Shown piece after piece: positions 3,915 through 9,988 of a stretch of DNA of 14,356 bases. The notes beneath the pieces are model-generated. The model worked only from the letters and a program-made list of their open reading frames with translations, ran no database searches and was not told the origin of the DNA. Origin of the DNA: Candidatus Iainarchaeum sp. (GTDB lineage Archaea > Iainarchaeota > Iainarchaeia > Iainarchaeales > Iainarchaeaceae); contig JBDRLP010000037.1 of the NCBI GenBank assembly GCA_043812975.1, forward strand, positions 1 to 14,356. Reading direction: 5' to 3'. Position numbers and translations under genes: made by a program. The first letter of the stretch is position 1, and each line of letters begins with the position of its first letter.

Positions 3915-4271
3915 ATGTTAAAAATCGATGCATCTTTTACGCCGTTCAGGCTTAACTTAAGAAGGAAGGAACCAGTTACTTTGAAATTGAATATCAGGAA
4001 CATGAATGATGAGGATGTTTTAATGTCTTACGAAGTTCTTGTTTCAAGAAGTCTCTCAATGGATAAGGGGGGCTTTAAAACAAGCGAAGCCAAAAGGTTT
4101 GGTAAAATGGAACCTGGTCAGATCGAGGAGAAATACTTTGATATTTATCCAAAAAGTATGACAAGAGACGGGACATATCCTATTGTAATCAAGGCAATGG
4201 AGCATTACAATACCTACAACTTTGTTGAAAAAGAATATAAGAAAAAGCTTGAGATTAAAGTTGAAGAATAG
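3915..4271 (+). CDS. Hypothetical protein, probable Ig-like beta-sandwich
   Basis: GGGGTG SD at 3900-3905. Beta-rich pattern VTLKLNIRN...MEPGQ...FDIYP...GTYPIVIKA resembles CARDB/NEW3-like domains. Confidence 0.6.
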   Translation: MLKIDASFTPFRLNLRRKEPVTLKLNIRNMNDEDVLMSYEVLVSRSLSMDKGGFKTSEAKRFGKMEPGQIEEKYFDIYPKSMTRDGTYPIVIKAMEHYNTYNFVEKEYKKKLEIKVEE

Positions 4272-5412: not shown

Positions 5413-5832
5413 ATGCCTCAAAAGCAGCCCCTGAAATATCACAGGTTGAAGTTTTCTTTGCCTAAATTCAGTTTTTATGCTAAATTACTGCCTTCTAAGA
5501 ACTCGGAATTAGTGCACGAATTGTTGGACAACTTACCAATTACAGGTTACGCAGAACGCTGGGGCGAGGAGATTTATTTCACAATCGATGCTTTGTTGGC
5601 TATATCAAACCCCATTGAAACCAAATCTGTTGGTGTTGGGGATATTGCTTTTTGGGTTCCTGGTTCTGCTATTGCTATTTTTTTCGGGTCTACGCCTATG
5701 AGTAAGGGGAGTAAACCTGTGCCTGCTTCGGCTGTTGGAATCTTTGCTCGTATTGATGGTTTGAAAGCTATCTTAGAAGATCTGAGGCACGTTAAGCACA
5801 TGGATAAGATTGTGGTTTCTGGTGCAAAATAA
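5413..5832 (+). CDS. Cyclophilin-like fold protein (TM1367/DUF369 family)
   Basis: LLDNLPITG-AERWGEEIYF...VGVGDIAFWVPGSAIAIFFGSTPMS...PVPASAVGIFARI is characteristic of the family. ATG 5413 preferred as start. Confidence 0.85.
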   Translation: MPQKQPLKYHRLKFSLPKFSFYAKLLPSKNSELVHELLDNLPITGYAERWGEEIYFTIDALLAISNPIETKSVGVGDIAFWVPGSAIAIFFGSTPMSKGSKPVPASAVGIFARIDGLKAILEDLRHVKHMDKIVVSGAK

Positions 5833-5861: not shown

Positions 5862-6005
5862 TCATTTTTCTATTTTACCTTTTACTTTGGCGCTAACTTC
5901 ATTCCCTTCTCTGTCCCATCCACGGACTTCTACGAGGCGGGTTCTTGAGAGTTTTCTCAAGTGCTGACCTATTCTATGCCTTATATTGCGTATACGCATT
6001 ACCAT
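5862..6005 (-). CDS. Small basic hypothetical protein (47 aa)
   Basis: MVMRIRNIRHRIGQHLRKLSRTRLVEVRGWDREGNEVSAKVKGKIEK. Start is uncertain because the frame extends to 6140. Confidence 0.4.
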   Translation of the reverse strand: MVMRIRNIRHRIGQHLRKLSRTRLVEVRGWDREGNEVSAKVKGKIEK

Positions 6006-6092
6006 ACGGACTTTACGCTCTGATTCTATAAAAATCTGTGTTATATTTTGTTGGCAAAAAAGTTCAATTAGTTCAAATTCCCCTTCGTAATT

Positions 6093-6120
6093 TTGCCGTA
6101 TAAGAGAGCTTGTGCCGAGT
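6093..6120 (+). other. dif/pdif-like 28-bp site
   Basis: TTGCCGTATAA-GAGAGC-TTGTGCCGAGT has 11-6-11 geometry with a CGTATAA-ended left arm. The left arm matches the TTGTCCTAAAA repeat core at 8/11. Confidence 0.4.
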
Positions 6121-6161
6121 TTCAGTATAACTATGTGCATGCCGTATTCCGATAAGAATAG

Positions 6162-6503
6162 GATTACCGGTACTACAGGGGTGTTTTAAGCCATATTAGG
6201 GCTTTTGAGCCGTCTGAGGGCCAATTATTTTCTCTCTGTGGTTCCGCTATATTTCTCTTTTCTGGAGAATCTAATGAGTCAGAAGAGGTTATCCCGAATT
6301 TAAATGTTGTTTTTGAGTTAGGGGCGGCAAGTGTGTTGTATGGTGACAAGGTTATCTTATTCAAAGAACAAGGATTGAATCTCCCAAGTGACTTTAGTGA
6401 TTTAGGTTATATTTCTTTTGAAAAGGGAAACTTAGAGGCTAAGACGTTAGATTTATTTAAGGAATTAATTTCAATGGGATTTGTCAAGGTAATGCCTGTT
6501 TAA
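6162..6503 (+). pseudogene. 5'-truncated TIR-like nucleotide-binding domain (CAP12/Pycsar TIR, PF10137-like)
   Basis: Manual translation of a frame not in the ORF track: ...CGSAIFLFSGESNESEEVIPNLNVVFELGAASVLYGDKVILFKEQGLNLPSDFSDLGYISFEKGNLEAKTLDLFKELISMGFVKVMPV*. The NVxFELG and LPSD motifs are present. There is an in-frame TAG at 6159 and no ATG upstream of the domain. Confidence 0.75.
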
Positions 6504-6562
6504 TCAATTTTGTGTGTGTCCGTATAGTATTAACAATTATCCAAAAACCCTTCTTGCAAAGA

Positions 6563-6603
6563 AAGCGTGGCCGTTCCTTTAAATTTTGTCCTAATATTCG
6601 TGC
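6563..6603 (+). repeat. Boundary repeat copy 1 (long form)
   Basis: AAGCGTGGCCGTTCCTTTAAATTTTGTCCTAATATTCGTGC, 36/41 identical to 8400-8439. Confidence 0.85.
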
Positions 6604-6677
6604 TTTTGTAATAACTATATTTTTATACTTGCTTAAACATTAATTGAGTATAAATTTGATTAATTTGTGTGATTATT

Positions 6678-6839
6678 ATGGCTAAACCTATTAGAGCAAC
6701 TCCAACTCTTGTTGGGCAGGAAGCGGTTGAATTTGTTAATACCATGGTACGTAGAGAACGCAGTTCTCGTCTTACTAATTCTGATAAAGAATTAATTAAT
6801 GTAATTCATAAAAATAAGAAATTATTTAGTAGTATTTAG
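6678..6839 (+). CDS. Small protein (53 aa), putative antitoxin partner of the GNAT
   Basis: MAKPIRATPTLVGQEAVEFVNTMVRRERSSRLTNSDKELINVIHKNKKLFSSI*. The MAKPI-x-xTPxL-G-EA-xF N-terminus resembles small proteins I recall next to archaeal GNAT genes. Its stop overlaps the GNAT stop by 4 bp. Confidence 0.65.
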   Translation: MAKPIRATPTLVGQEAVEFVNTMVRRERSSRLTNSDKELINVIHKNKKLFSSI

Positions 6840-7408
6840 GCTGTTTCTTCTTCCTTGATAATAGTTATCAAATCTCGACACATGTGAATTGTATTTGTTT
6901 TTTCTTTCGTTTTAAGCACATCAAAACCTATTTTTTTGTAAAATCTCAATGGTTTTATGCGGTCAGGAATTTTTTCATCATTTTTAGAATCGAGTGTGAT
7001 AAATCTACATGCTGATTTTTCATTGATTAACAGTGCTTTTCTAATGGCAAAAGCAACCATCTTTGTTCCAAGTCCTTTTCTAGTGTATTCTTTTCTGACT
7101 CCCATTCTGCAAATTTTTAAAGCAGGTAAAGCGCGATATTTTATTCTCAATTCAGCCATCTGTTCTTTTCTTGTTTTATCCAAGCTAATCGCATCCGCAC
7201 AAATGGTTATGTAACTAAGTAGTTTTTTCTCCTTTCTTGACATCCAGAGAAAAGTGCGATTAATAGATTGTTTCATTTGGTATAAAGCATCTTCTTTCAG
7301 AAAATCTTCCAGCTCTTTTATGTCACACTCAAAGTTGTCAATAAATTTGCTAGTGGAATCTCCCAATTCAATAATTTCAATATCTTTTGAGGGGTATTCT
7401 TGTTCCAT
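6836..7408 (-). CDS. GNAT acetyltransferase, AtaT/TacT toxin-like
   Basis: FECDIKELEDFLKEDA...YITI...PALKICRMGVRKEYTRKGLG (acetyl-CoA motif A)...ACRFITLDS...FYKKIGF. Confidence 0.85.
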   Translation of the reverse strand: MEQEYPSKDIEIIELGDSTSKFIDNFECDIKELEDFLKEDALYQMKQSINRTFLWMSRKEKKLLSYITICADAISLDKTRKEQMAELRIKYRALPALKICRMGVRKEYTRKGLGTKMVAFAIRKALLINEKSACRFITLDSKNDEKIPDRIKPLRFYKKIGFDVLKTKEKTNTIHMCRDLITIIKEEETA

Positions 7409-7499
7409 TCTAAAACTAAGTTCAAATTTGTTTTAAATCCTTTTCAATTAGTTTTGAATCTAGGATTAAGTTAATTAAGTGCGGATTCATTATTTTTTT

Positions 7500-8369
7500 A
7501 TGGCAAAAAAGAAAGGCAGGGTTGTTGTGCCTGTGAGGTTTCCCACGATTAGTGATACGCCAACCAGAACTAAGTTGTTTCTTACTCCTAAGCAGATTGA
7601 ACAAATGAGGGCTAATTCCCGTTTCATTGAAGCAAAACACGTGGATTATCAGCCTTTGAGGCTTCCAACAGGAGAAGTGATTAAATCAGTTAGTTTGCAG
7701 GGAAAAAAAGGCGCGTTAGCTCACATGATGGCTGCAAAATCATCACATTTCCTAATTGGAATGAGCCAAAGAAAGCTTGATGAATTCCACAGGATAAACG
7801 ATGCCCTGAAGAAAAAAGGGGTTCCAGTGGTTAGAATTCTTGAGGATTACAAAGGAAAAAAGCCTGGTGAAAGGCTTGTGCTGATTGAAGGAGAAAAATC
7901 CACTCTATATAACCTCAACAGGGATTCTCCTAATGGTTTGCCTATTGCAGATGCAAAAAAGTATTTCGAAGCACTAGGAACACTTCATTCTCTTGGAGTT
8001 TCCCATAATCATCCCCACTTAGGTAATTTTTTCAGGAGAAACGGAAAAGCAGGGGTTTTTGATTTCAGTAACGTGAAATTTGGCAATGTTGACTGGAAAT
8101 CCCCAGAACGAATAATTGATTTTTTCCAAGTTGATTATAGTGTAGCGCTTGACAATTTCTTAATGACTGCTGTTAGAAACAAGAGGCTTCAAGAAAGAAT
8201 AAAACAGGAACAAATAGGAGATGTTTTACAAGAACTAGTAAAACCTTTACCTGCAAGCCAACGCGTGAAACAGGTTTTGGTGGAAGAACTAGAAAATTCT
8301 TTTTTCGATGTCCTAATCCCTCATTATAGAGAACATGGTTTCTTTAAAACACATAAAATGGACATCTGA
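7500..8369 (+). CDS. Protein-kinase-like fold protein (RIO/Kdo/APH-like) with atypical catalytic loop
   Basis: LKKKGVPVVRIL...LGTLHSLGVSHNHPHLGNFF...GVFDFS resembles HxDxxxxN plus DFG. Start at ATG 7500 (MAKKK). Confidence 0.65.
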   Translation: MAKKKGRVVVPVRFPTISDTPTRTKLFLTPKQIEQMRANSRFIEAKHVDYQPLRLPTGEVIKSVSLQGKKGALAHMMAAKSSHFLIGMSQRKLDEFHRINDALKKKGVPVVRILEDYKGKKPGERLVLIEGEKSTLYNLNRDSPNGLPIADAKKYFEALGTLHSLGVSHNHPHLGNFFRRNGKAGVFDFSNVKFGNVDWKSPERIIDFFQVDYSVALDNFLMTAVRNKRLQERIKQEQIGDVLQELVKPLPASQRVKQVLVEELENSFFDVLIPHYREHGFFKTHKMDI

Positions 8370-8399
8370 AATTTTATTGTTTAATCCTCTCACTACCGG

Positions 8400-8439
8400 A
8401 AGCGTGGCTGTTCCGTTAATTTTGTCCTAGAATTCGTGC
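8400..8439 (+). repeat. Boundary repeat copy 2 (long form)
   Basis: AAGCGTGGCTGTTCCGTTAATTTTGTCCTAGAATTCGTGC. It contains the TAG stop (8427-8429, minus strand) of the Zn-ribbon ORF. Confidence 0.85.
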
Positions 8440-8549
8440 ATTTTCTCATTTGTAAACCCGCACCTATAACACTTGAAAGTAATTTTTCCTTTGAACGAAT
8501 TACTTTTGATTCTCGTGCTGTTGCAGGAGGGGCATTTTTTTGGCGGCAT
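8427..8549 (-). CDS. Zinc-ribbon microprotein (40 aa)
   Basis: MPPKKCPSCNSTRIKSNSFKGKITFKCYRCGFTNEKMHEF* has two CxxC motifs. AGGA lies 9 nt upstream of the ATG. Confidence 0.75.
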   Translation of the reverse strand: MPPKKCPSCNSTRIKSNSFKGKITFKCYRCGFTNEKMHEF

Positions 8550-8555
8550 AAAAGG

Positions 8556-8566
8556 TTGTCCTAAAA
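8556..8566 (+). repeat. Boundary repeat copy 3 (core only)
   Basis: TTGTCCTAAAA, identical to the cores at 8805 and 9917. The downstream TTCGTGC is absent. Confidence 0.6.
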
Positions 8567-8639
8567 AACAGGTAATTTTCCTGATCTCATAAAGAAAAAT
8601 AAGTTTCCCTTACTATTTAAGGCTTTTTGAAAAATGGAT

Positions 8640-8771
8640 TCATTTCTTTTTTTTCTTCCCAAAAACCCTTTGAAGTTCTTTCCTTAAATGTGCATCTTCT
8701 CTTCTTGCCCAAGTAGGATCAATCCCCGGAAGAAAACCCTGCTTTTTAACTGATTTCTTTTTTGGAGGCAT
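8640..8771 (-). CDS. Small Lys-rich hypothetical protein (43 aa)
   Basis: MPPKKKSVKKQGFLPGIDPTWARREDAHLRKELQRVFGKKKKK*, lying between repeat copies 3 and 4. Confidence 0.55.
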   Translation of the reverse strand: MPPKKKSVKKQGFLPGIDPTWARREDAHLRKELQRVFGKKKKK

Positions 8772-8794
8772 AAAAAAACAATTCATTCAAACAA

Positions 8795-8822
8795 TAAAAA
8801 CTTGTTGTCCTAAAATCCGCGT
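8795..8822 (+). repeat. Boundary repeat copy 4
   Basis: TAAAAACTTGTTGTCCTAAAATCCGCGT aligns without gaps to TAAAAACCTTTTGTCCTAAAATTCGTGC at 9907-9934. Confidence 0.8.
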
Positions 8823-8915
8823 ATTTGCATTCAATTTTTTTTGAAAAATTAACAATAGTTAATAATAACTAAAAAAGCAGTAATTAGTATAGTAAATAAA
8901 TCTGAGGTGGAAAAA

Positions 8916-9011
8916 ATGAATTGGAGAAAATTTGTAGCAGAAGTACCTAAGCATGTATTTGTGCCAAGGATAAGAAATAGTTCTATTAGGAGAAAATTAA
9001 TTTGGTTTTAG
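8916..9011 (+). CDS. Micro-ORF (31 aa), possibly a frameshifted or decayed gene
   Basis: GAGGTG SD just upstream of MNWRKFVAEVPKHVFVPRIRNSSIRRKLIWF*. Another frame continues as EKINLVLDEEYEFNELKNIFR*. Confidence 0.35.
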   Translation: MNWRKFVAEVPKHVFVPRIRNSSIRRKLIWF

Positions 9012-9062
9012 ATGAAGAATATGAGTTTAATGAACTCAAGAATATTTTTAGATAACTAAATC

Positions 9063-9092
9063 AAAAAAAAGTAAGTAAAGGGCAGAAGCCCT
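9063..9092 (-). terminator. Hairpin plus U-tract terminator
   Basis: Minus strand AGGGC-TTCT-GCCCT followed by TTACTTACTTTTTTTT, 10 nt after the stop of 9103-9261. Confidence 0.6.
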
Positions 9093-9102
9093 GTACTGGA
9101 TA

Positions 9103-9261
9103 TTATCCTTTGTTTGATAATTTATTTGACTTTACAAATGCCCAGATTTTTTTGGTCATTTCGCTTGGAGCTATTGGCTTGTTTCCGAAAATCTGCTCTG
9201 CAGTTTCTGTTCTGCCGGCAAAATTAATGGTATAGCCTCCAAATGCTGGTTTTCCTGCCAT
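9103..9261 (-). CDS. Small SWIB/MDM2-like protein (52 aa)
   Basis: MAGKPAFGGYTINFAGRTETAEQIFGNKPIAPSEMTKKIWAFVKSNKLSNKG*. Strong GAGGTGA SD and a downstream terminator. The segment IFG..PI..SE.TKKIW.FVK.NKL resembles the SWIB core helix. Confidence 0.7.
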   Translation of the reverse strand: MAGKPAFGGYTINFAGRTETAEQIFGNKPIAPSEMTKKIWAFVKSNKLSNKG

Positions 9262-9281
9262 AAGTTTCTCACCTCTTTAAT

Positions 9282-9324
9282 TATTAGTTCAAATTATTAG
9301 GCTTAGCTCTAATTTAAACTAATA
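9282..9324. promoter_or_regulatory. 15-bp imperfect inverted repeat (putative operator or hairpin)
   Basis: TATTAGTTCAAATTA-N13-TAATTTAAACTAATA, 14/15 complementary, just upstream of the SWIB-like gene. Confidence 0.45.
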
Positions 9325-9347
9325 CGTAAATATCCCTCTATTAGCTC

Positions 9348-9893
9348 TTAATTTTCGGTTAATTTATAGTATTTCCAGTAAAAATAGTTCATTATTGTAT
9401 ATGCAATAACCTGGAACCAAGTAAGCCAGAATACTCTGAACCCGAACGGCAGTAAAAAACCAAGCACTGTTGTCACGATTGCATAAACAGCAAAGTATTT
9501 AGTAATGCTTTTTTTCAGAATTACAATGCCTTTTTTTGCACTTATAAAAATTCTCGGCATGAAAGCTATTGCAACCCAGAAGGAAAACATTCCAATTTGA
9601 TTTGCATCAGGATTCCCCCAAGGAGAGTTCCCTATAACAAACCACTCAAAAGCTAACCCAAAAAAACCAAATAAAAAATAAAACAAAACATCAGCTTTCC
9701 TTCCACTCAAATGTTTGTCAACAAAACTATTCACAAGATAAACAAGTGCAAGATAAATCGGATAAAAAAATGAAGTAAAAATAAAATTCGAAACATTATT
9801 TGTTGCAAGAATATTGAACTGGAATTCAACAACCATTGCGAAAACAAAGCCGACTAAAACGAATTTCAGTAATTTATTCATAACTAAATTCAT
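9348..9893 (-). CDS. Hypothetical multi-pass membrane protein
   Basis: About 5-6 hydrophobic segments and a EWFVIGNSPWGNPDANQIGMF loop. The start may be 9881 instead. Confidence 0.75.
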   Translation of the reverse strand: MNLVMNKLLKFVLVGFVFAMVVEFQFNILATNNVSNFIFTSFFYPIYLALVYLVNSFVDKHLSGRKADVLFYFLFGFFGLAFEWFVIGNSPWGNPDANQIGMFSFWVAIAFMPRIFISAKKGIVILKKSITKYFAVYAIVTTVLGFLLPFGFRVFWLTWFQVIAYTIMNYFYWKYYKLTEN

Positions 9894-9902
9894 TGTTCTC
9901 GG

Positions 9903-9946
9903 AAGCTAAAAACCTTTTGTCCTAAAATTCGTGCAAAAGGTAGCTT
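9903..9946 (+). repeat. Boundary repeat copy 5, embedded in a hairpin
   Basis: TTGTCCTAAAATTCGTGC (9917-9934) flanked by ACCTTTTG/CAAAAGGT and AAGCT/AGCTT inverted arms. Confidence 0.85.
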
Positions 9947-9988
9947 TATTTTATATTAATGATATTTATGTTTAGAGGTTTTTGTTTA

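Follow-up and report, generated by a model that had tools for sequence, protein, structure and literature searches.

A conserved 18-nucleotide word at the gene junctions of a variable archaeal island, candidate operator of portable leaderless promoters

Small, unrelated genes of Candidatus Iainarchaeum sp. are separated, in one chromosomal island, by co-oriented copies of a short conserved sequence. What is this sequence, and does it serve to capture genes or to control them? The question is raised by a 14,356-bp stretch (the window, which is the complete contig C37) of the genome G000, an assembly of 1,237,545 bp in 68 contigs with 35% G+C. An earlier reading of this stretch, hereafter the original prediction, had proposed a gene-capture hotspot resembling integron cassette arrays and Xer/dif-borne modules. 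We find that the conserved unit is an asymmetric 18-mer, and we favor the hypothesis, to which we give a probability of about 0.5, that together with a leaderless promoter it forms a portable operator-plus-promoter junction module.

A junction word specific to one island

The five exact same-strand copies of the core TTGTCCTARWA on which the original prediction rested, at 6586, 8422, 8556, 8805 and 9917, were all recovered at these coordinates, as were the 7-mers that follow them (TTCGTGC at 6586, 8422 and 9917, TCCGCGT at 8805 and aacaggt at 8556). The copies and one inverted look-alike are placed in the window as follows.

9917..9934, minus strand: copy 5, the consensus 18-mer GCACGAATTTTAGGACAA, at the first junction of the array
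8805..8822, minus strand: copy 4, ACGCGGATTTTAGGACAA, with three mismatches; TATA box TTTTTATT at 8800-8793 and ATG at 8771, 33 nt past the motif
8556..8566, minus strand: copy 3, the 3' core only (TTTTAGGACAA), between a TATA-like AAAATTA (-30 to -24) and the ATG (8549) of a Zn-ribbon gene
8397..8439, minus strand: copy 2, an 18-mer at 8422-8439 with a terminal-type extension at 8397-8421 (GGAAG-N9-TTCC)
6560..6603, minus strand: copy 1, an 18-mer at 6586-6603 with a terminal-type extension as in copy 2
5514..5531, plus strand: inverted look-alike GCACGAATTGTTGGACAA, identical at 16 of 18 positions, inside a cyclophilin-like gene in the gene's sense direction and facing the array

Conservation is confined to 18 nt, the information profile falling abruptly at both edges. 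On the minus strand, in gene direction, the unit reads GCACGAATTTTAGGACAA; its longest T run is four. With up to three mismatches it occurs eight times in the whole genome, against two for the reversed control: four array copies of the window, the look-alike at 5514-5531 and one copy each on contigs C3, C16 and C44. Two degenerate copies had been proposed in addition. The one at 6088-6103 was counted correctly as a 13/16 match, but it lies in a conserved non-coding stretch (see below) and is not recovered with up to four mismatches; the one at 6517-6527 is not recovered at this threshold either, and neither was counted. The flanks, described as lacking a full core, do contain look-alikes: cores with one mismatch at 8984 (minus), 10317 (plus) and 11036 (minus), beside the one at 5514-5531.

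The comparison covered six genomes of the genus (G000 to G005), 23 of the family and a wider set of 41 related genomes. The 18-mer with at most one mismatch is found in 8 of the 41, including four of the five other members of the genus, and its reversed control in none; with at most two mismatches it is present in 10 of the 23 family genomes against a single control match. Counted with up to four mismatches, the arrays of the relatives are the following.

G005: 9 motif copies, clustered and co-oriented on one 7.7-kb contig
G004: 8 motif copies, clustered and co-oriented within ~9 kb
G001: 5 motif copies, clustered and co-oriented on one contig
G003: 3 motif copies, clustered and co-oriented up to the contig end

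The array contigs of G001, G003 and G005 stop within the array, and those of G001, G003 and G004 show it adjoining the same flank as in the window, made of genes for a NUDIX protein, a winged helix-turn-helix (HTH) protein and a 118-aa protein. A variable, cassette-like locus had been anticipated and is indeed what the four relatives display: 3 to 9 motif copies at the same chromosomal site, with unrelated genes in different order. Their cargo includes pirin, a JmjC-type cupin, glyoxalase, methyltransferases, a LAGLIDADG endonuclease, a RelE-like pair and many open reading frames (ORFs) without family. Genes for a Zn-ribbon protein (four genomes), a SWIB-like protein (four), a membrane protein (two) and a multi-HTH family recur in changed order. 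Across the family the interval between the 118-aa gene and a 121-aa gene, whose homolog was not found in G000, amounts to ~1 gene in G009, ~5 in G012, ~8 in G008 and the 8.4-kb array in G004. No equivalent junction repeat was seen at this locus in the three loci of other genera that were inspected. The sixth genus member, G002 (47% G+C on that contig), has co-oriented homologs of the SWIB-like, membrane protein and pirin genes behind ordinary TATA promoters, and the array motif is absent. The motif is therefore an overlay on these genes and not a requirement of their arrangement.

Could the copies be chance or low-complexity A+T-rich repeats devoid of function? The 35% G+C of the genome and the number of exact cores in it, 9 compared to 20 for the reversed control word, would fit such an explanation. 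These counts establish that the word is not enriched genome-wide but strongly clustered, 5 of the 9 exact cores lying within 3.3 kb inside the window. When one mismatch is allowed the window has 8 cores while 1.93 are expected, and none of 200 shuffles reaches 8. Clustered, co-oriented 18-mers in four other genomes of the genus, with no control match in the 41 genomes, speak against chance as well. A search in species-representative genomes (596 Gb) returned 101 stretches, and several matches per contig were found, one Clostridia genome aside, only on contigs titled archaeon or 'Candidatus Iainarchaeum'. We consider that chance has next to no likelihood here.

In that Clostridia genome the pattern matches seven contigs (L053, L063, L071, L074, L084, L099 and L107), mostly near their ends, and the metagenome contig L166 (28% G+C) has three tandem matches spaced 21 nt; both are probably unrelated repeats that contain the word by chance. 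Metagenome contigs with multiple copies match the G001, G004 and G005 arrays at 99.7-100% identity and therefore provide no independent variants, with the exception of L164, which extends the G005 array. Reads were represented by 20 short, low-depth Logan contig pieces from 4 DNA runs, none of which spans a junction; a search for RNA runs returned none. What had been noticed in the window is thereby confirmed and extends beyond it, as a genus-wide, island-specific junction word. No description of such a motif was found in a limited set of literature on archaeal integrons, on Iainarchaeota/Diapherotrites and on hypervariable intergenic motifs of DPANN archaea.

Coupling to predicted leaderless promoters and copies inside genes

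TATA-like words ahead of 1,037 long ORFs of the genome peak at -31 to -28 from the ATG, from which it follows that leaderless transcription is the norm in this organism. Its ordinary promoters have an A-rich B recognition element (BRE) and no conservation further upstream. Against this background 29 non-coding copies with up to three mismatches, excluding the three coding look-alikes and two L164 duplicates of G005 copies, were classified by their position relative to the next gene.

Canonical, 16 of 29 copies: TATA-like word starting +3 to +8 after the motif, ORF-opening ATG at +32 to +41
Terminal-type, 5 of 29 copies: additional conserved sequence, no same-strand gene at promoter distance
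Zn-ribbon type, 2 of 29 copies: motif between an AAAATT box and the ATG
Inverted edge, 2 of 29 copies: at the island's inner edge, pointing at the array
Off-spacing, 4 of 29 copies: ATG more distant or absent

The position of the motif relative to the predicted core promoter is fixed in the canonical class, whose 16 copies precede at least 13 unrelated genes; these 16 of the 29 junction modules contain a conserved predicted promoter. Copies 8805 and 9917 of the window have canonical spacing with the second ATG. In copy 5 the TATA-like TTTTTAG occupies 9912-9906 and the second ATG (9881), 35 nt past the motif, coincides with the start of the G001 ortholog. Typically the upstream gene ends close by, its stop codon lying 0-16 nt before the motif or overlapping it. 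Taken together with the promoter profile of the genome, the canonical spacing places the motif at about -52 to -35, running into the BRE position. Copy 3 has the layout of the Zn-ribbon type, and two Zn-ribbon genes of G004 are alike in having the full 18-mer 0-10 nt before the ATG with AAAATT just 5' of it. The stop codon TAG of the Zn-ribbon gene of the window lies inside copy 2, which is followed by no same-strand gene.

These features suggest that a sequence-specific DNA-binding protein recognizes the 18-mer, which would make one unit with a standard archaeal leaderless promoter. The unit would consist of the upstream stop codon, 0-16 nt, the 18-mer, ~4 nt, the TATA box, ~25 nt and an ATG that doubles as transcription start. 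The 3' end of the motif would reach into the BRE, the element contacted by transcription factor B. At the Zn-ribbon genes the motif lies between TATA and start instead, so that in either layout a protein sitting on it would contact the core promoter. Such a protein could most simply be a shared repressor or gatekeeper of the island; binding by a protein, like the sign of the regulation, is what we infer from the sequence data, which themselves show the anatomy of the unit, its conservation, its constant spacing and how variable the locus is.

The multi-HTH proteins encoded in the arrays are candidates for reading the site. In the arrays they form a divergent family of 283-546 aa, the G003 array member for example having 345 aa, with repeated HTH units and weak Pfam matches (HTH_7, HTH_23 and ISL3-type HTH). 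The family is present in 7 of the 23 family genomes (G000, G001, G003, G004, G005, G010 and G012). Six of these seven genomes have the motif with at most one mismatch, the seventh, G012, having only one match with two mismatches; G002 has neither the family nor the array motif. The canonical module precedes five of six aligned members, and the G004 member directly follows a Zn-ribbon gene. Members that stand alone, without motif, are found in G000 (C13, about 168 aa), G003, G010 and G012. Co-occurrence of family and motif among related genomes is the basis for proposing these proteins as candidate readers of the 18-mer.

Several observations count against an operator-plus-promoter module. Behind five copies, those of terminal type, no gene on the same strand starts at the distance expected of a promoter, and four more are off-spacing. 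A regulon almost wholly confined to one island would be unusual. The AlphaFold model of the multi-HTH protein is poor, with a mean pLDDT of 61.7, Foldseek found no structure of the PDB at E <= 0.001, and the best match of a PDB profile search reached only E 0.35; the link between family and motif is moreover weakened by the relatedness of the genomes and by the fact that most members belong to the array cargo. No TATA box follows the copies situated in a histidyl-tRNA synthetase (HisRS) gene, in an Lrp-like gene on C44 and in the cyclophilin-like gene. The HisRS copy, finally, is under constraint at the nucleotide level, and a promoter module gives no reason for this.

All six genomes of the genus carry the 18-mer in frame in the HisRS gene, where it encodes xRILGQ with the motif's own codons (C16 250-267 in G000). 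The Arg codon is CGA in 6/6, a triplet that makes up 5% of the Arg codons of G000. Among 17 HisRS sequences from the family's other five genera the peptide position is variable and no sequence fits the motif. When the six genes are aligned by codon, the 18-nt windows of the motif region are the most conserved, with a mean pairwise identity of 0.88-0.915 against 0.69 for the gene. The exact motif window ranks 7 of 754, preceded by windows that overlap it and by another region of high conservation near column 638, and its synonymous-codon identity of 0.82 is second of 221 in-frame windows. HisRS pseudogene remnants were looked for in the arrays and none was found. The C44 copy (4197-4214) is an exact 18-mer with three more matching bases (21 nt) in an intact tandem Lrp/AsnC-like gene, whose G002 ortholog uses different codons at that place. 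The cyclophilin-like look-alike is found also in the G003 ortholog (L031 7897); in G001 and G004 the corresponding island edge bears an inverted copy that is intergenic (L032 4612 and L030 14604). All three intragenic copies are in the sense direction of their host gene.

This common orientation of three independent sites is in line with a different role, that of a polar signal, read along transcription or replication: a protein-bound roadblock or terminator, a 3'-end element in the RNA of every array gene or, at the extreme, a Ter-like fork barrier in opposed groups. The array copies close behind stop codons, the HisRS copy as the gene's most conserved 18-nt stretch in the genus with its CGA in 6/6, and the copy facing the array at the inner island edge of four genomes point the same way. 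However, the motif has only four T in a row and no consistent stem-loop, the Zn-type motif lies upstream of the predicted start and would not be in that RNA, and a terminator at the HisRS site would cut short an essential enzyme. Statistically, three intragenic sites of common orientation also carry little weight. A replication origin or terminus cannot be placed in the fragmented assembly, and the GC skew of the window tracks gene strand. A polar signal seems to us decidedly improbable; the intragenic copies keep it alive, together with the bolder notion of an address for DNA handling.

Possible recombination at the junctions

The alternative closest to the original prediction is that a dedicated site-specific system recognizes the 18-mer or crosses over there. 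Such a system would insert and excise promoter-plus-gene cassettes in an integron-like capture array and use the terminal-type copy as primary attachment site. The cargo is unrelated from junction to junction, and the Zn-ribbon, SWIB-like and membrane protein genes change order between genomes. Kinds of cargo such as GNAT, glyoxalase, cupin, toxin-antitoxin and methyltransferase resemble that of integron cassettes. Stop codons at most 16 nt ahead of the motif or overlapping it, the inverted copy at the island's inner edge in G001 and G004 with a look-alike there in the window and G003, and the contigs of G001, G003 and G005 that break off inside the array are further features of this kind.

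The GNAT module (6604-8396) is enclosed by copies 1 and 2, which form a ~45-bp direct repeat, and in the G005-lineage metagenome contig L164 a small ORF and a GNAT gene likewise lie between two terminal-type copies. The 9-nt loop of GGAAG-N9-TTCC differs between genomes and is identical, or nearly so, in the two copies of one genome. This sharing suggests exchange between copies or repeated insertion, although gene conversion between nearby repeats would explain it equally well.

The known recombination sites provide a direct comparison. Xer/dif-borne modules (pdif modules and IMEX elements) are discrete gene modules surrounded by short sites, with no recombinase gene inside. The dif and pdif sites have an 11-6-11 structure with an inverted second arm, or more broadly two inverted arms of ~11 bp about a spacer of 6-8 bp, and the sites of modules alternate in orientation. 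In contrast, the 18-mer lacks an inverted second arm and its array copies are all co-oriented. Searched within 40 nt of the core in 27 copies, such an arm gave a mean best match of 6.67/11 against 6.78 in shuffles. Sites of the attC type are imperfect inverted repeats that form hairpins when single-stranded. The statement that the sites are not classical attC was borne out: the 58-nt junction segments of the 27 copies have a mean folding z of -0.04 as RNA and -0.29 as DNA, and only the one at 9917 folds strongly. That copy alone is bracketed by a perfect 8-bp inverted repeat (ACCTTTTG / CAAAAGGT; z about -3.3 to -3.5).

It was also right that the window has no recombinase gene, PF00589 matches being absent from C37, and none was found on the array stretches of G001, G003, G004 and G005, several of whose contigs end inside the array. 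G000 has four PF00589 genes, on C20, C26 (two) and C27, the last coding for a 282-aa XerA-like protein. The three others are large tyrosine-recombinase genes (411-434 aa) at C26 5703-6209 and 14403-14900 and at C20 22255-22797; the two on C26, 8 kb apart, possibly mark integrated elements. Since hairpin, inverted second arm and nearby recombinase are all absent, the motif is neither attC-like nor Xer/dif-like. The Xer/tyrosine-recombinase mechanism is not supported, and the motif is instead locked to the core promoter of the next gene. Ends of insertion sequences or of MITEs, an origin that the original prediction had named against itself, would be paired terminal inverted repeats in dispersed copies and do not account for copies that are co-oriented and confined to the island. 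The terminal-type extension, tried as a dispersed repeat, occurs only twice in the genome.

A site-specific system of another type would meet the same lack of dyad symmetry and a fixed TATA and ATG spacing. The array contains a core gene found family-wide, and G002 has a homologous run without motif. Of 74 homology-block ends, only 13 are at most 25 nt away from a motif; such positions make up 3-9% of the arrays, and the mild excess is due to the Zn-ribbon cassette. The 18-mers show no significant concerted evolution, with 15.57 identities within and 15.40 between genomes (permutation p 0.16). On balance we find dedicated site-specific capture unlikely.

For archaea, integron cassette arrays and CALINs have been reported (Ghaly et al. 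2022, PMC9668308). As far as the excerpts of this paper go, they have in common with the 18-mer array co-oriented, unrelated small genes, a conserved junction site near the stop codon and a chromosomal location. Co-oriented unrelated ORFs with a conserved separating site are thus present. The 18-mer junctions differ in having no attC-type hairpin or IntI, the latter optional for CALINs, and in the location of the site 5' of a promoter at fixed spacing. Mostly promoterless cassettes with one common promoter, another hallmark of integrons, are not what we see: behind 16 of 29 copies there is a separate TATA-like box with a leaderless ATG, spaced as is usual in this genome.

An operator-plus-promoter module leaves room for rearrangements of the locus. 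Unrelated genes are separated by a module of ~30-55 bp that is each time alike, and such repeats provide short homology through which promoter-plus-gene units could be gained, lost or reordered; by analogy with PeSL cassettes (see below) the repeated copies probably serve for shuffling in this way. A TATA, motif and Zn-ribbon unit is duplicated within the G004 array with 86% identity (L030 5658-5815 and 10637-10801); the pair reads as a direct example of the copying of a promoter-plus-gene unit. A bolder and doubtful proposition, which we would rank among the less likely, is that the 18-mer is the address of a novel DPANN gene-capture system: multi-HTH proteins would read the asymmetric site, in place of an integrase that reads a hairpin, units would be inserted, excised and reshuffled at one hotspot, and the HisRS copy would be a fixed chromosomal reference site.

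Neighbouring genes and known analogues

The other features of the island in the window are listed below.

8427..8549, minus strand: 40-aa Zn-ribbon gene bounded by copies 2 and 3, with homologs in the arrays of G001, G004 and G005
8640..8771, minus strand: 43-aa basic peptide gene (MPPKK...), canonical spacing to the copy-4 module, no family found
9348..9881, minus strand: 177-aa membrane protein gene, canonical spacing to the copy-5 module
9103..9261, minus strand: 52-aa SWIB-like gene, about half a SWIB domain, without motif; single-copy, in 19 of 23 family genomes
6604..8396: module between the terminal-type repeats, with a 53-aa ORF (6678-6839, plus), a GNAT gene (6836-7408, minus) and a 296-aa ORF (7479-8369, plus)
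6252..6503, plus strand: truncated TIR-like gene, C-terminal third of a CAP12/Pycsar-type TIR domain
5941..6209: conserved non-coding stretch at the island's inner edge, 67-82% identical to G001, G003 and G004, with stops in all frames

The intervals between sites had been described as carrying unrelated cargo, which holds for the GNAT, Zn-ribbon, basic peptide and membrane protein genes but not for the SWIB-like gene, a family-wide, conserved resident and not cargo. The orthologs of the membrane protein gene have a degenerate motif in G001 and none in G002. Among the functional labels proposed for these genes, the TIR remnant is confirmed by a match to PF10137 (profile positions 67-118 of 119, E 8.1e-6, 26.3 bits for a cut-off of 24.7) and has in-frame stops upstream, and the GNAT label is confirmed as well. 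The Zn-ribbon and SWIB-like labels have Pfam matches that are weak and under the cut-off. No family support was found for an antitoxin, and neither Pfam nor the PDB supports calling the product of the 296-aa ORF kinase-like.

The Zn-ribbon protein shares 45% identity over 31 residues with the N-terminal Zn ribbon encoded by a 302-aa gene on C11 that resembles transcription factor B by eye. If the C11 gene codes for this factor, the small protein may be a free-standing copy of its RNA polymerase-docking ribbon, encoded in an island of special promoters. A 31-codon ORF (MNWRKF..., about 8916-9011, plus) has GAGGTG before its start, unusual for a mostly leaderless genome, and a small ORF that resembles it by eye (MNWKIF...) lies outside the G004 array (L030 3475-3609). 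At the outer edge of the array the inverted repeat ACCTTTTG ... CAAAAGGT (window 9900-9950) is followed by a T run and is terminator-like. The stretch 5941-6209 at the inner edge has a nearly invariant core of ~50 nt and is adjoined by a LAGLIDADG endonuclease gene in G001 and G004; neither covariation nor an Rfam match was detected in it.

The window also encodes aconitase X and isopentenyl phosphate kinase, genes of the archaeal mevalonate pathway. The flanking winged-HTH protein was considered as local regulator and set aside because it is family-wide (18 of 23 genomes) and so not array-specific. On the right side of the locus, G002 alone yielded a DUF2207 homolog, situated at a contig end. 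No tRNA gene was found in the window or in four arrays, and Rfam gave only two sub-threshold snoRNA-like matches. A viral origin of the island was rejected, PHROGs identifying no hallmark gene among 30 proteins, and its base composition is not atypical for the genome.

Archaeal operators and activator sites that abut BRE and TATA, like those of Ptr2, TFB-RF1 and Lrp-type proteins, tend to be palindromic or degenerate and to occur dispersed throughout a regulon. The 18-mer is similar to them in position, just upstream of or overlapping the BRE or between TATA and start. It differs in being asymmetric, nearly invariant and limited to one island and a few coding sites.

Reused or 'mobile' prokaryotic promoters, which are highly similar sequences ahead of non-homologous genes (PMC3575422, in excerpt), resemble the module in this very property. 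Relative to what that excerpt covers, the 18-mer copies are distinguished by their concentration in one island, by the extra 18-bp upstream word and by conservation in several species of one genus.

The nearest analogue known to us is the PeSL (promoter-early stem-loop) cassette of T4-type phages, a promoter/terminator module that mediates modular shuffling in hyperplastic regions, according to excerpts of Arbiol et al. 2010 (PMC2839356) and Comeau et al. 2014 (PMC4122927). Both are short, conserved, promoter-bearing junctions between unrelated, mostly unknown small genes, in a hyperplastic region with conserved core flanks whose gene content and order differ between relatives. As far as those excerpts describe PeSLs, the 18-mer module departs from them in being archaeal and chromosomal, in combining an asymmetric 18-bp word with a TATA box, in having copies within coding genes and in the absence of a stem-loop terminator. 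Recombination between modules and mini-circles have been demonstrated for PeSLs in the same sources, while recombination in the archaeal island is only inferred.

Little is known of how DPANN archaea, whose genomes are tiny, acquire their accessory genes and control them. An 18-bp word that flags the accessory genes of a genus and predicts their promoters offers a single site with which to seek the binding protein. Its HisRS copy is a rare case of DNA-level constraint over an essential coding sequence. If the modules also shuffle genes, these archaea would have a cellular equivalent of what PeSLs do in phages, and with it a way of building cassette-like arrays without integron machinery.

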